Origin: an uncultured Gammaproteobacteria bacterium
GTDB taxonomy: Bacteria; Pseudomonadota; Gammaproteobacteria; Steroidobacterales; UBA11654
DNA length: 64,000 nt
Reading direction: 5' to 3'
Assembly (NCBI GenBank): GCA_937801655.1
Contig: CALMWC010000005.1
Location: 1,811 to 65,810, forward strand
The position numbers and the translations under genes are program-made. Of the stretch, positions 7,509 to 21,434 are shown one piece after another. Below the pieces are notes generated by a model. That model was not told the DNA's origin. It was given only the letters and a program-made list of their open reading frames with translations, and did no database searches. The first letter of the stretch is position 1. Each line of letters opens with the position of its first letter.

Positions 7509-7919
7509 CTACCCACTCATTACTCTTGGCCATCGATCGTGAACACTGAATTCTAATTCTGGCTCAATGGTCACCACATATAACCTTTGTTCTTGATTCT
7601 CTACGGCAATCAATCCTTGAATCCATTGTCCTCGTATCAGATCAAACCAGTGACTCTTTCCTTCATGATCTTTTTCCATAAAACTAAGAACTGGTATCTT
7701 AACTGGTTTAGGAAACCATCTATCCCAAACACCTGAATGTATTGAATCTAATCTTGCCCATCCACCTAAGGGTAATCTTCCTGACTGTCCTTTTCTTCTT
7801 CCCCAAAGAATTAGTTTTGTTTGATCGTCCTTTGCCATCACTGGGAGTTTTGCTTTTGGATTAGGAAAGTAGACTCTCATATGATCCCCATTGTGATTAT
7901 AAGACACACCTCCACACAT
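7509..7919 (-). CDS. short SRAP (SOS-response associated peptidase, YedK/HMCES)-like protein
   Basis: Starts MCGG (Cys2). By-eye matches to SRAP core blocks: LILWGRR, GGWARLDS, IPVLSFMEKD, VHDRWPRVM. Only 136 aa. Its start overlaps the polymerase stop as TAATG. Confidence 0.55.
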   Translation of the reverse strand: MCGGVSYNHNGDHMRVYFPNPKAKLPVMAKDDQTKLILWGRRKGQSGRLPLGGWARLDSIHSGVWDRWFPKPVKIPVLSFMEKDHEGKSHWFDLIRGQWIQGLIAVENQEQRLYVVTIEPELEFSVHDRWPRVMSG

Positions 7920-9175
7920 TATATTGTTCTCCTATGACCGCTTGGTTTCCAAGCTGGGGCAATGACATCAGGCATACTTGATCGATGTATTAGATTACTG
8001 GGAGCTATTGTTAGATCCCCATATCGTTCATTGATGCAGTCTAGGACTTTATTTTTCTTATTGGAATGATTCTTCTTTTCTTGATTCTCAAAAAAATTAA
8101 TTTGTTGATTGGCTTTACTTGGTTTTATTGCTGTTACTTGGATTTGACTAATCCCTTCACCATGCCATTGTTGATGAATCAATAATTGGCCTAATTTCAT
8201 GATGCATATTCCATCATCCGTTGGATATTGACTGTGCATTTTTTGACCAAGCCAGCCATATTTAGAGCGAAAACCTATATAAAATTTAGATGCTTTTAGA
8301 TTGTGTCTTCTAAGTCGGGATCCAACTTTTTCACTCATATGTTGCAAGTATGTTTTGATAGTTTGAATATCTTTAGTATTAGGCGGCATTACTTTGCCAT
8401 GTCCAATAGATTTAGGTTCAGCAATATGAGTGTGTATTTTTTCTGGATCTTTACCTTGGGCCATAAGCCAGATACGTCGTCCTGGATGACCAAAATGTTT
8501 ACCCAGTAAACTAATAGGAATATTTTTCATATCACCACAAGTATAGACTCCATAAGATTGTAAGAAGCCACCAATACCTTTTGCAATACCACATAACTCA
8601 GTAACTGGGACATCATGGAGAGTGCTTTCTGATTTGCTTGGATGCACTACAGTTATGCCATTGGGTTTGTTTTGTTTAGCAGCATACTTTGCAGTTGTTT
8701 TATCACCGCTGATGCCAATGGAACAGGGTAGACCCGATAGTTCAAAAACCAATTCTTTTATTTGTTGAGCCAGTTTCTCAGGTGAGCCCATAATTTTTTG
8801 GCAACGAGTCATATCAAGAAATGCTTCATCAACTGAGTAGACCTCTATATCAGGAGTTACTTTATTTAAACCTTGCATTATTTTTGTAGAGATTTCAGCA
8901 TAACGTTTTGGCCTAGAAGGCCTTTGAATTAATTCTGGACAAAGTTTGCGTGCTTCTTTAAGGCGCATACCAGTTTTGATTCCCCAATACCTAGCCTCAT
9001 AGGAACACGTAATAATGCAAGTGCCCTGAATGCCGTTAGTAACCGCAATAGGCCGTCCAAATAACTCTGGCTGATCCATTTGCTCAATGGATGCAAAGAA
9101 TGAGTTCATATCAACCAACGCAATTATTCTAGGCCAAGGTGAGTAATCACTGATAACTTCTGAGTTGTCCAACAA
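7919..9175 (-). CDS. Y-family DNA polymerase (DinB/UmuC-like)
   Basis: Catalytic motifs LVDMNSFFASIEQ and YSVDEAFLD, plus the SIGISGDKTTAKYA and HhH-like regions. Its 5' end overlaps the 3' end of lexA by 29 nt. Confidence 0.85.
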   Translation of the reverse strand: MLDNSEVISDYSPWPRIIALVDMNSFFASIEQMDQPELFGRPIAVTNGIQGTCIITCSYEARYWGIKTGMRLKEARKLCPELIQRPSRPKRYAEISTKIMQGLNKVTPDIEVYSVDEAFLDMTRCQKIMGSPEKLAQQIKELVFELSGLPCSIGISGDKTTAKYAAKQNKPNGITVVHPSKSESTLHDVPVTELCGIAKGIGGFLQSYGVYTCGDMKNIPISLLGKHFGHPGRRIWLMAQGKDPEKIHTHIAEPKSIGHGKVMPPNTKDIQTIKTYLQHMSEKVGSRLRRHNLKASKFYIGFRSKYGWLGQKMHSQYPTDDGICIMKLGQLLIHQQWHGEGISQIQVTAIKPSKANQQINFFENQEKKNHSNKKNKVLDCINERYGDLTIAPSNLIHRSSMPDVIAPAWKPSGHRRTI

Positions 9176-9755
9176 CTACTCCTTGTATCTGAACCCGTTC
9201 CGGTTCGTAGGCAATGGTTTCCATAAACTTATTTTCAGGCATTAAAAGAACCATTCCATCTGGTAATCTTTTGAGTCGCTTTAGGGTTGCTTCAATACCA
9301 TCAATTAATGCAACGATAATGTCTCCATTATTAGCAGTATTTTGATGTTTTATTATGACAGTATCACCATCAAGAATACCTGCCTCCATCATTGAGTCTC
9401 CTGTAACTTGTAAAGCAAATCTATCTGCATTCATTATGAAATCGGCTAAATTAATCTCATCTCGACCCTCAATGGCTTCAATAGGATGGCCTGCAGCAAT
9501 TCGACCTAAAAGGGGAATTGTTGGCACTAGTGGAATGTTTTCATTGGCTTCTGGATTTAAATGAATACCACGTTTTCGATTTGGCAAAATAGTGATCAAG
9601 TGAGACGATTCTAATGATTTTAAATATCGATGCACAACTCCTCTTGAATTGATACCGATACCTTGCGCTATCTCTTTCAAGGTAGGAGCATAGCCTTTTT
9701 CCATAAAGTATTGCTGGATAAATTTAAAAGTTTTTTTCTCGCTTGGCGTTAACAT
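9147..9755 (-). CDS. lexA: LexA repressor (S24 autopeptidase)
   Basis: N-terminal wHTH (YAPTLKEIAQGIGINSRGVVHRYLKSLE), Ala-Gly cleavage site (RIAAGHP), catalytic Ser (GDSM) and Lys (ATLKRL). Confidence 0.9.
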   Translation of the reverse strand: MLTPSEKKTFKFIQQYFMEKGYAPTLKEIAQGIGINSRGVVHRYLKSLESSHLITILPNRKRGIHLNPEANENIPLVPTIPLLGRIAAGHPIEAIEGRDEINLADFIMNADRFALQVTGDSMMEAGILDGDTVIIKHQNTANNGDIIVALIDGIEATLKRLKRLPDGMVLLMPENKFMETIAYEPERVQIQGVVVGQLRSYQ

Positions 9756-9790
9756 AATCTTTCTTCCACTGATAATTTTTTAATCATTAG

Positions 9791-9819
9791 ATAATAGAGA
9801 ACAAATAGAGAACATTCAA
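9791..9819 (-). promoter_or_regulatory. predicted lexA promoter (TTGAAT-N17-TATTAT) with a GTTC-N7-GTTC direct repeat in the spacer (candidate LexA operator)
   Basis: The minus strand reads TTGAAT GTTCTCTATTTGTTCTC TATTAT. On the plus strand, 9793-9814 is a perfect tandem duplication of AATAGAGAACA. The site lies 35 nt upstream of the lexA ATG. Confidence 0.5.
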
Positions 9820-9947
9820 TGAAATATTTATAATTTTTATATTTTTGTAGAAAATTGAGAGTATCTGAAGTTGCCTACATAGCTGATATAGAGTTTAATA
9901 GCATCTTTAAGAGTAGACTATGCAATATAATGAGGTTATTTGATTAA

Positions 9948-10211
9948 ATGTTGCCATTCGAATTAATTATAAGAGCTGTAAGCATTGTTTTTGGCTTAGG
10001 TATGTTTGTTCTCGCAATTATATTAGGAGGGTTTGTTTTTATTGCGTTTGCTGGCTTGATTCTCCTGGCTGTGATTATTTTCTATATCAGAGGTTTTTTC
10101 TATAAAAAGAAAAATATATTTAATTCAGAAGAGAAGAGTCAATCTAATTCAAATGACACAATAATTGATGCAGAGTACACCGTTATAGATGATAAGGATT
10201 CAGATGATTGA
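9948..10211 (+). CDS. small membrane protein (two predicted TM helices, acidic tail)
   Basis: 87 aa with hydrophobic stretches AVSIVFGLGMFVLAIILGGFVFIAFAGLILLAVIIFYI followed by an S/D/E-rich tail. Transcribed divergently from lexA. Confidence 0.45.
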   Translation: MLPFELIIRAVSIVFGLGMFVLAIILGGFVFIAFAGLILLAVIIFYIRGFFYKKKNIFNSEEKSQSNSNDTIIDAEYTVIDDKDSDD

Positions 10212-19299: not shown

Positions 19300-19794
19300 A
19301 TGAAAATATTTGGAATAGATCCTGGATCAAGAGTAACCGGTTATGGATTAATTGAATCCAATGGCAATCACTCTAAATATATTGATAGTGGTATTATTAA
19401 AACCAGTGAGAAAATCTTTCCTGAAAGACTCAGAATTATCTATACAGAGATCCAGAACTTAGTAGTTCATCATCAACCTGATGTTATTTCAATAGAAAAT
19501 GTATTTATGCATAAAAATGCTGATAGTGCTCTAAAATTAGGACAAGCTAAAGCAGCTGCTATTTGTGGTACTTTTAAAATAAACGTATCTGTTTTTGAAT
19601 ATGCTGCAAGAGAAGTTAAGCAGGCAGTTGTCGGAACGGGTGCTGCGGAAAAAGAACAGGTGCAACAAATGGTTAGAATCATTTTAGGTATTAAGAATAA
19701 GGAGTTAAAACTTGATGAATCCGATGCACTTGCAATAGCAATCTGTCATGCTCATAGTTACTCAGTAAATAAAATATTGAAAGATAAACAATAA
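19300..19794 (+). CDS. ruvC: Holliday junction resolvase RuvC
   Basis: IFGIDPGSRVTGYG start, catalytic acidic residues, and C-terminal DESDALAIAICHA. Confidence 0.9.
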   Translation: MKIFGIDPGSRVTGYGLIESNGNHSKYIDSGIIKTSEKIFPERLRIIYTEIQNLVVHHQPDVISIENVFMHKNADSALKLGQAKAAAICGTFKINVSVFEYAAREVKQAVVGTGAAEKEQVQQMVRIILGIKNKELKLDESDALAIAICHAHSYSVNKILKDKQ

Positions 19795-20384
19795 TGATTG
19801 GTTCTTTAATTGGCTTGGTAAAAAATAAGAAACCCAATATGGTTCTCATTGAAGTCAATGGAATTGGGTATGAAGTTAATGTTCCACTGTCCACTAGCTT
19901 TAAAGTACCTGCAATTAATGAGTCAACCTACATTCTCACTCATCTAATTGTTAGAGAAGATCAACATACACTGTATGGTTTTGCTACAGAGGAAGAAAGA
20001 AATCTATTTAGAGCCCTGATAAAGATAAGTGGAGTAGGCCCTAAATTAGCCCTGACAATTTTATCCGGCATTAATACAAATGATTTTGTTAAGTCAGTAT
20101 TGTCAGAAGACATAGAAACATTAATTCATCTTCCAGGTATTGGAAAAAAGACAGCGGAAAGATTGGTGGTTGAAATGAAAGATAAAGTTAGTGAGATTTC
20201 TGATTCTCTGGAAATTACTGATGGAGGTTTACCAAAATCAAACACAGTAAGAGAAGCACAGAATGCTCTTGTTAATCTTGGTTATAAAAGTTCAGAAGCC
20301 AGAAAGATTCTAGACAATATAGATAAAGATGAACTTACAGTTGAGGACCTTTTAAAGCAGGCATTGCAATCTTTGAATAAGTGA
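19794..20384 (+). CDS. ruvA: Holliday junction DNA helicase RuvA
   Basis: MIGSL.G start, and HhH motifs ISGVGPKLALTIL and LPGIGKKTAERL. Confidence 0.9.
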   Translation: MIGSLIGLVKNKKPNMVLIEVNGIGYEVNVPLSTSFKVPAINESTYILTHLIVREDQHTLYGFATEEERNLFRALIKISGVGPKLALTILSGINTNDFVKSVLSEDIETLIHLPGIGKKTAERLVVEMKDKVSEISDSLEITDGGLPKSNTVREAQNALVNLGYKSSEARKILDNIDKDELTVEDLLKQALQSLNK

Positions 20385-20390
20385 TGATAT

Positions 20391-21434
20391 ATGGATGAAA
20401 TAGAAAATATAATCTCCAATGAAATCCAAGAAGGAGAAGAGTCTATAGACAGCATGCTAAGACCTAAAACTTTATCCGAATATGTAGGTCAAGATCCTGT
20501 TAAAGAGCAACTTAGTATTTTTATTGAAGCCGCAAAAAAACGAGAAGAGTCATTAGATCATGTATTGATATTTGGGCCCCCTGGTTTGGGAAAAACTACG
20601 TTAGCTCATGTTATATCAAATGAACTTGGGGTTAATCTAAAGCACACTTCAGGACCTGCGATAGAAAAACCAGGAGACTTGGCTGCCATCCTAACTAACC
20701 TTGAAGAAAATGATGTTTTATTTGTTGATGAGATACATCGATTGAGTGCTGTTGTGGAGGAAATTCTATACCCAGCATTGGAAGATTATAAATTAGATAT
20801 TGTTATTGGTGAAGGGCCTTCTGCAAGGTCCATTCGATTAGATCTAACATCATTTACTATGATTGGTGCTACAACCAGAGCTGGTCTACTGACATCTCCT
20901 TTGAGGGATCGCTTTGGTATTTCACAGAGATTGGAATTTTACCACCCTAACGAGCTTACCAGTATTGTTATTAGATCAGCTGGCATTTTAGATGTTGTGA
21001 TTGATCAAGAAGGTGCTGAAGAAATTGCCTCTAGAGCCAGAGGCACTCCTAGGATTGCAAATCGATTACTCAGAAGAGCAAGGGATTTTGCACAAGTTAG
21101 GGCAGATGGAGAAATCACAAAGAAGGTTGCTCTTGATGCGATGCAGCTGATGGATGTTGATAAAAATGGTTTTGATTTATTGGATCGTAAATTTTTATTA
21201 GCAATCATTGAAACTTTTAATGGGGGACCTGTAGGCATTGATGCAATAGCTGCTGCCATAGGTGAAGAAAGAGGTACTGTTGAGGATATTATTGAGCCAT
21301 TTCTTATACAAAGAGGTTTTTTAATTAGGACACCTCGTGGAAGAACTGCTTCTTTAAAAGCCTATCAACATTTTGAAATTGAAATACCCAAGGAACTTAG
21401 AGAGCAAAACCCAAATCTCTTTGACGCATCTTAA
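20391..21434 (+). CDS. ruvB: Holliday junction DNA helicase RuvB
   Basis: Walker [12 protein letters not shown], Walker B LFVDEIHR, and the [12 protein letters not shown] sensor region. Confidence 0.95.

Follow-up and report, generated by a model that had tools for sequence, protein, structure and literature searches.

The promoter of lexA in a 64-kb stretch of contig CALMWC010000005.1 from an uncultured marine Gammaproteobacteria bacterium (hereafter the window, meaning this whole stretch of 64,000 nucleotides) contains a direct repeat, GTTCTC-TATTT-GTTCTC, at 9797–9813 on the minus strand, and this repeat very probably serves as the operator for the LexA protein encoded directly downstream (9147–9755, minus strand). 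A direct repeat with this core, GTTC-N7-GTTC, is the SOS box of Alphaproteobacteria (Rhodobacter, Sinorhizobium, and Caulobacter; PMC4951493). A direct-repeat operator at this position had been proposed in an earlier, sequence-only reading of the window, and comparison with other genomes supports that proposal on four counts: the repeat leaves a conserved footprint at lexA, it travels with one family of LexA proteins, it recurs at 97 recA promoters, and it is the sole match to a known LexA motif pattern in the lexA upstream region.

Read along the minus strand, positions 9819–9791 consist of TTGAAT (9819–9814), GTTCTC (9813–9808), TATTT, GTTCTC (9802–9797), and TATTAT (9796–9791). The two GTTCTC hexamers are in direct orientation, with an 11-bp period and five nucleotides (N5) between them, and direct reading confirms the perfect duplication of an 11-mer described earlier at 9793–9814, in that 9793–9803 and 9804–9814 are each AATAGAGAACA. 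The alphaproteobacterial pattern of two direct GTTC units 7 nucleotides (nt) apart is likewise present on the lexA strand (GTTCTCTATTTGTTC, 9813–9799), as had been claimed; the half-site GTTC is there, but the unit that is conserved is longer, the hexamer GTTCTC. The promoter previously proposed is recovered by a consensus scan with a sigma-70-like score of 9/12, its −35-like TTGAAT (9814–9819, minus strand) abutting the first GTTCTC and its −10-like TATTAT (9791–9796, minus strand) abutting the second. The spacer between these elements is 17 nt long and is filled exactly by the repeat, and 35 nt separate the end of the −10-like hexamer from the lexA ATG (9755). One 11-bp step further upstream lies a possible degenerate third half-site, TTTC (9821–9824, minus strand), weakly suggested by a one-mismatch match, TTTCATTGAATGTTC, at 9810–9824; it is not kept in all relatives, being TTTT in L004–L007. 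Three units are common in the lexA promoters of Alphaproteobacteria.

Nine published LexA motif patterns were tried on the region upstream of lexA, and only the alphaproteobacterial type matches. CTGT and ACAG are both absent from the 192 bp of this region (9756–9947), in agreement with the sequence-only reading, and neither the Gram-positive-type Cheo box, GAAC-N4-GTTC, nor the Verrucomicrobia motif, TGTTC-N4-GAACA, has a match upstream of lexA. Both the window site and the recA sites described below are without an inverted partner of the half-site. On a position matrix derived from 33 distinct sites at lexA and recA (28 bits), the window site scores 30.6 bits and the runner-up in the window 7.0 bits.

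The repeat is conserved among close relatives. Seven loci from metagenome-assembled genomes (MAGs) and single-amplified genomes, labeled Gammaproteobacteria and in one case Woeseiaceae, encode LexA proteins that are 78–96% identical to the window LexA. TTGAAT-GTTCTC-N5-GTTCTC-TATTAT is invariant in these loci, while the remaining intergenic DNA diverges and, in L003, is unrelated; across the eight loci of alignment A1 (LexA 78–100% identical), the invariant block is TTGAATGTTCTC(N5)GTTCTCTATTAT, which includes both promoter-like hexamers. The perfect 11-mer duplication is not conserved, as the relatives carry TGTTCTCTTTT/TGTTCTCTATT; what is kept is the GTTCTC pair at its 11-bp period.

The pair is also found at much greater distance. 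Among family members with a LexA 40–60% identical to that of the window, reached through protein searches, contig look-ups, and annotated plasmids, at least eight lineages have a perfect GTTCTC-N5-GTTCTC upstream of lexA, where the chance of a perfect site is ~2e-5 per 200-nt upstream region; no further perfect GTTCTC-N5-GTTCTC occurs in ~330 kb of lexA-family loci. In L133, L134/135, L136/137, L138, and L139/140, perfect sites lie no more than 60 nt from the lexA start, and their placement varies. The contig of a Lamellibrachia tubeworm symbiont (L138) has three sites and two lexA genes; one promoter has the architecture of the window promoter, TTTACA-GTTCTCtaaatGTTCTC-TATTAT, and a reversed copy precedes its ATG. 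In L133 and L139/140, a degenerate forward copy is accompanied by a perfect reversed one, and in L134/135, in L136/137, and at the second lexA of L138, the copy that abuts the ATG is reversed. A Methylobacter plasmid has a site with one mismatch, GTTCTCtttttGTTCTA, between umuDC and lexA, ~60 nt upstream of the latter, and a Methylophaga plasmid has the variant ATTCTC-N5-ATTCTC near lexA. Because the sequence of the motif stays constant as its placement and orientation shift, and because the motif tracks one regulator family, it has the hallmarks of an autoregulatory operator.

The same box is found at recA. A metagenome scan in which the box was required 60–120 nt before the RecA FGKGxxM codons yielded 97 contigs, against at most 4 expected (an estimate from 61 positions × 4^-12 per recA gene). 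All 97 recA promoters read aaaaGTTCTCTTT(A/G)TGTTCTC, followed 12 nt on by GATAAT preceded by TGT, which places the box over the −35 region of recA. At 90% identity, the RecA proteins of these contigs resolve into 13 clusters; no pair is less than 72% identical, and identity to E. coli RecA is 70–79%. The contigs span GC contents of 0.41–0.65, and no CTGT-N8-ACAG is found near the 97 boxes. Two further RecA lineages (L242 and L251/252; three contigs), picked by protein similarity alone, carry the box as well. The named RecA homologues are all labeled “MAG: Gammaproteobacteria bacterium”, and the cluster labels of the protein homologues are mainly “Gammaproteobacteria bacterium”, with two evidently mis-binned labels. 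As in the alphaproteobacterial system, then, the box is present at both lexA and recA, with the recA examples coming from related gammaproteobacterial contigs of clades other than that of the window. Since it lies over the −35 region of recA in these other lineages, it would act there as a true SOS box.

Two other features of the recA loci were observed. One extra perfect site (GTTCTCACTATGTTCTC; L235, 559–575, minus strand) is present in 667 kb of recA loci, ~460 bp beyond csrA and among short open reading frames (ORFs) only. In addition, the recA loci L145–L241 all share a conserved 5′ leader downstream of the box (in the largest cluster, e.g., ...caactcaaatg.a.aggtaggtag.aaATG), an indication of further conserved elements in the promoter or leader.

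The presumed regulator is, by its sequence features, a complete LexA that is neither an alphaproteobacterial LexA nor the canonical gammaproteobacterial one. The product of 202 amino acids (aa) scores 161.3 bits against TIGR00498 (cutoff 110.95) and has LexA_DNA_bind (PF01726) and Peptidase_S24 (PF00717) domains; its cleavage site, Ala88-Gly89, and its catalytic Ser121 and Lys159 are invariant in a 22-sequence family alignment (A2) and line up with their E. coli counterparts. Identity to E. coli LexA is 34%, and the window protein is no closer to this gammaproteobacterial LexA (99 bits) than to the LexA of Thermotoga, since the score against the latter (98.7 bits) is nearly equal; it is ~40% identical to alphaproteobacterial, Bacillus, and Streptomyces LexAs. 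Its recognition helix reads SRGVVHRYLK, and that of the family S-(K/R)-G-x-x-H-R-Y, compared with S-K-S-G-I-H-R-L in Alphaproteobacteria and S-P-N-A-A-E-E-H in E. coli. The His-Arg pair stands where E. coli has Glu44-Glu45, which contact DNA in the structure of the E. coli LexA-DNA complex. The family comprises more than 150 clusters at 50% identity above 128 bits and is spread over Gammaproteobacteria MAGs, sulfur-oxidizing symbionts, Methylophaga and Methylobacter plasmids, and integrase/defense islands. As judged from these comparisons, the lineage is old, partly mobile, and gammaproteobacterial, and it is widespread among uncultured members of the class from marine and sediment settings.

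From the arrangement of the site and the features of the protein, we infer how the operator would work. Two LexA DNA-binding domains would recognize the two GTTCTC hexamers head-to-tail, and would do so on one face of the helix because the hexamers are 11 bp apart, center to center. LexA bound in the −35/−10 spacer would exclude RNA polymerase, because the repeat exactly fills the 17 nt between the two elements, and would repress the operon of lexA, a Y-family polymerase gene, and a 136-aa ORF, an arrangement that amounts to autoregulation. Upon DNA damage, filaments of RecA on single-stranded DNA would stimulate self-cleavage of LexA between Ala88 and Gly89 via Ser121 and Lys159, and the operon would be derepressed.

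Several observations weigh against this account. The bare pattern GTTC-N7-GTTC occurs in the 64 kb at the level of chance (1 found, 0.82 expected); matrix and mismatch scans find no second site there, and ruvC-ruvA-ruvB (19300–21434) is without a box. The window LexA has a short linker (202 aa in total, compared with 226–245 aa for alphaproteobacterial LexAs), which poses the question of how a symmetric dimer would fit a direct repeat. At several of the family's lexA promoters there is an extra reversed copy, as noted above, and binding at these promoters may be of higher order or paired. Finally, tblastn finds no lexA in the 97 recA loci, and the ties that would join the recA boxes to this LexA family are the identical motif and a class-level label.

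An alternative that we consider possible, if doubtful, is that the window LexA resembles Pseudomonas putida LexA2 in repressing its own translesion cassette and nothing more, with a canonical LexA encoded elsewhere running the SOS regulon through CTGT-N8-ACAG. Consistent with this alternative, the sole site in the window belongs to the lexA operon, and divergent motifs usually accompany small, polymerase-centered LexA regulons (PMC4951493). The three-gene cassette is also present on the plasmid of a cultured organism, Methylophaga thalassica IOM01, 40 kb of which contain no second site by matrix and mismatch scans; a related lexA stands beside umuDC on the Methylobacter plasmid, others lie in integrase/defense islands, and on the contig of the Lamellibrachia symbiont a distance of 6 kb separates two lexA genes of the family. 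However, 97 gammaproteobacterial recA promoters and the two independent RecA lineages carry the box with no canonical box, placing the motif at a central SOS gene. The lack of CTGT-N8-ACAG in the window (0 found, 0.66 expected) is a weak point in the same direction. The window LexA may thus be a master SOS regulator or may control only its own translesion cassette: the occurrence of the cassette on plasmids and in integrase/defense islands fits a mobile, self-regulated module, and the boxes at recA are consistent with a master regulator, at least in some lineages.

It is improbable that a different regulator binds the repeat, or that the repeat is simply a conserved promoter spacer, with LexA binding elsewhere or not at all. 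In the clade of the window, the conserved block does coincide with core promoter elements, which would be conserved for reasons of their own. However, the hexamer pair is unchanged outside of such a spacer, where it stands reversed by the ATG (L134 and L136–L139) or over the −35 region at recA. Moreover, the genes at which it occurs, lexA and recA, are precisely the two signature genes of the SOS response, and no other known LexA motif lies upstream to take its place.

The likeness to the alphaproteobacterial box could also reflect a recent lateral transfer that brought in both an alphaproteobacterial lexA and its operator, as in Acidobacterium capsulatum, a precedent cited in PMC4951493. The core of the half-site, the spacing, and the direct orientation are the same, the His-Arg pair of the recognition helix is held in common, and neighbor-joining groups the alphaproteobacterial proteins (references from Sinorhizobium, Cereibacter, Sphingomonas, and Methylobacterium records) with the family, apart from the LexAs of Firmicutes, Actinobacteria, Geobacter, and E. 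coli/Pseudomonas. However, the node that makes this grouping has a bootstrap value of 29%, whereas the alphaproteobacterial LexAs form a clade at 98% with the window protein outside of it. The N-terminal domain is 22–31% identical to those of alphaproteobacterial LexAs, which does not exceed its identity to E. coli (31%), and it lacks the alphaproteobacterial type of domain (PSFDEMK...SKSGIHRLI...LPNRARALEV), having only S..(I/V)HR and LPNR.R in common with it; the overall identity of ~40% is matched by Bacillus and Streptomyces LexA. The family is, furthermore, very varied, with its more than 150 clusters and with labeled members that are gammaproteobacterial. Because the protein falls outside of the alphaproteobacterial clade, its N-terminal domain is no more than 22–31% identical, and the long alphaproteobacterial linker is absent, it is very unlikely that gene and operator came recently from Alphaproteobacteria. 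The sequence-only reading had proposed a “diverged or laterally acquired” regulator and had recommended placing this LexA and its recognition helix in a phylogeny. Divergence is upheld by the low identity to E. coli and the equal score against Thermotoga, and recent acquisition from Alphaproteobacteria is not; the protein is of neither the alphaproteobacterial nor the E. coli type and shares its His-Arg pair with the former.

That the repeat is a functionless tandem duplication arisen by replication slippage is hardly credible: GTTC-N7-GTTC does occur at the rate of chance in the window (57 of 100 shuffled windows have at least one) and the genome is AT-rich and repeat-prone, but Markov simulations give 0.03 perfect 11+11 tandems per window, against one found, and the hexamer pair is conserved across LexA identities of 40–100% and at recA. 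Sigma-70-like matches at 9/12 are not enriched in the AT-rich window either (7 found, 10.2 expected). What raises the operator above chance, on the sequences compared here, is the comparative data and not the bare pattern in the window.

The putative operator of the window is reminiscent of the alphaproteobacterial SOS box in its direct GTTC repeat and its 11-bp period, and four alphaproteobacterial lexA promoters (Sinorhizobium, Cereibacter, Sphingomonas, and Methylobacterium) contain two to three GTTC units at this same period. The proteins share the His-Arg pair and a weak affinity in the tree. The window system differs in having GTTCTC hexamers as half-sites on either side of an A/T-rich spacer, and in that its LexA, at 202 aa and outside of the alphaproteobacterial clade, belongs to a gammaproteobacterial host. 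In Acidobacterium capsulatum, an alphaproteobacterial lexA was laterally acquired, to go by the title of the report (Mazon et al. 2006, Microbiology 152:1109, cited in PMC4951493). Taken at its title, that case is similar in having an alphaproteobacterial-type GTTC-N7-GTTC box outside of Alphaproteobacteria, whereas the window protein is not an alphaproteobacterial LexA and its lineage is broad within Gammaproteobacteria. With E. coli LexA, the window protein shares the protein family and the logic of an autoregulated SOS repressor, and E. coli LexA also represses translesion polymerase genes; in contrast to E. coli, the 16-bp palindrome CTGT-N8-ACAG is absent, identity is 34%, and the helix is SRGVVHRY instead of SPNAAEEH.

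Non-canonical or secondary LexAs have been described in other Proteobacteria, namely Sideroxydans/Gallionella (Sanchez-Alberola 2015), Pseudomonas putida LexA2 (Abella 2007), and Xanthomonadales (PMC4951493). They too are exceptions to the motif of their class; they are associated with duplicated or laterally spread lexA genes and often control translesion cassettes. Their motifs are reportedly palindromic, of the GAAC type, the GTAC type, or TTAG-N6-TACTA, and the window site, as a direct repeat, would differ from all of them in this respect. The LexA of Balneolaeota recognizes a direct repeat, TTACACATATTTTWTACATA, and controls recA and translesion polymerases; direct-repeat recognition by LexA has evolved several times (PMC7739468). 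The half-site, the spacing, and the phylum in that case are all different from those of the window.

The operon downstream of the putative operator comprises three genes on the minus strand. Following lexA, the second gene (7919–9175) encodes a Y-family (DinB/Pol IV-like) translesion polymerase (PF00817 and PF11799) whose scores against DNA polymerase IV models fall short of the cutoffs. The gene starts before lexA ends, so that the two overlap, and the lexA-polymerase order is kept in L129–L133, L138, L139, and the Methylophaga plasmid. A translesion polymerase in such an operon is typical SOS cargo (PMC4951493). The third gene (7509–7919), a 136-aa ORF starting MCGG, has a start codon that overlaps the polymerase stop by one base. 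This ORF follows the polymerase in every polymerase-type locus, and its counterparts in a MAG with a GC content of 0.42 (L139, 11859–12272) and on the Methylophaga plasmid (L142, 5840–6280) are 60% identical, compared with 44–56% for LexA itself. It has no Pfam, PHROG, or PDB-profile match, and a single-sequence AlphaFold model has a predicted local distance difference test (pLDDT) score of 33. An assignment as an SRAP/YedK peptidase, considered for a likeness by eye (MCG... IHDRxP), is unsupported, with no family match and an hhalign probability of 0.6%. The window contains no rRNA gene.

On the other side of the lexA upstream region, and 192 bp from lexA, lies a divergent gene (9948–10211, plus strand) for a predicted small membrane protein of 87 aa with an acidic tail. 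The protein has no family match, its position is conserved in relatives, and it could be a damage-inducible small protein. Co-regulation of this gene from the operator was considered and dropped, as a plus-strand promoter-like match at 9806–9834, which overlaps the operator, is not conserved in relatives.

Other genes are associated with the family elsewhere. On the plasmid of Methylobacter sp. YRD-M1 (L143, 3436–4627), lexA is divergent to umuD-umuC and the GTTCTCtttttGTTCTA box is in the shared intergenic region of 172 bp; Pol V is probably co-regulated from this shared box. The two family lexA genes of L138 (4198–6041 and 10001–12571) each have a box; one is accompanied by a Y-family polymerase and the other by GMT-wHTH and DUF5131. 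The latter is an instance of a second conserved module composed of lexA (208–212 aa), GMT-wHTH (~385 aa), and DUF5131 (~252 aa), which is found in L136 (10001–12563), L137 (476–3038), L138 (10001–12571), and L134 (2464–4265). The module adjoins integrase, restriction-modification, HEPN, SMC-like, or AbiE genes, its box is reversed at the lexA ATG, and it looks like a LexA-controlled mobile or defense-island cassette.

Sites of the form TGTTCTC-N4-TGTTCTC are also present in IMG/VR, in more than 120 viral contigs (L009–L128 among the matches listed) and in mixed, unrelated contexts. Many of these contigs are low-GC and marine, with a T-rich spacer in the site, and one context, catagaTGTTCTCGTTTTGTTCTCataatt, recurs in L009, L011, L028, L086, and L098. 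Such sites may be phage promoters under a host LexA, the hosts being Alphaproteobacteria (e.g., SAR11) or Gammaproteobacteria. Three viral contigs, L012 (~7925–7990), L024, and L077, have three to six head-to-tail copies of the 11-bp GTTCTC unit (e.g., TGTTCTCCGTT), and these arrays look like iterons or multi-site operators.

LexA is a standard case of a regulator whose binding motif shifts between clades. In the accepted picture, Gamma- and Betaproteobacteria use CTGT-N8-ACAG, with a few palindromic exceptions, and Alphaproteobacteria use GTTC-N7-GTTC; in the literature searched, which was incomplete, no earlier account was found, for Gammaproteobacteria or for the taxa considered here, of a LexA box built as a direct repeat of GTTC. 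The present comparisons point to a diverse LexA lineage in abundant uncultured Gammaproteobacteria and in their plasmids and islands, using an alphaproteobacterial-like direct repeat at lexA and recA. More tentatively, and with the odds rather against it, this lineage could be the master SOS regulator of large uncultured marine and sediment groups of Gammaproteobacteria (possibly Woeseiaceae-like organisms and sulfur-oxidizing symbionts), with a box that shares ancestry with that of Alphaproteobacteria. Were that ancestry shared, direct-repeat recognition would predate the split between Alpha- and Gammaproteobacteria or would have spread early, and CTGT-N8-ACAG would be derived in part of the class. 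If LexA binds the repeat as proposed, the prediction of SOS regulons in marine metagenomes would change, as standard gammaproteobacterial matrices would find nothing at such promoters, and a short-linker LexA would be at hand for work on direct-repeat recognition by a symmetric dimer. Binding would also provide a new data point on whether the alphaproteobacterial box was inherited, transferred, or reinvented.

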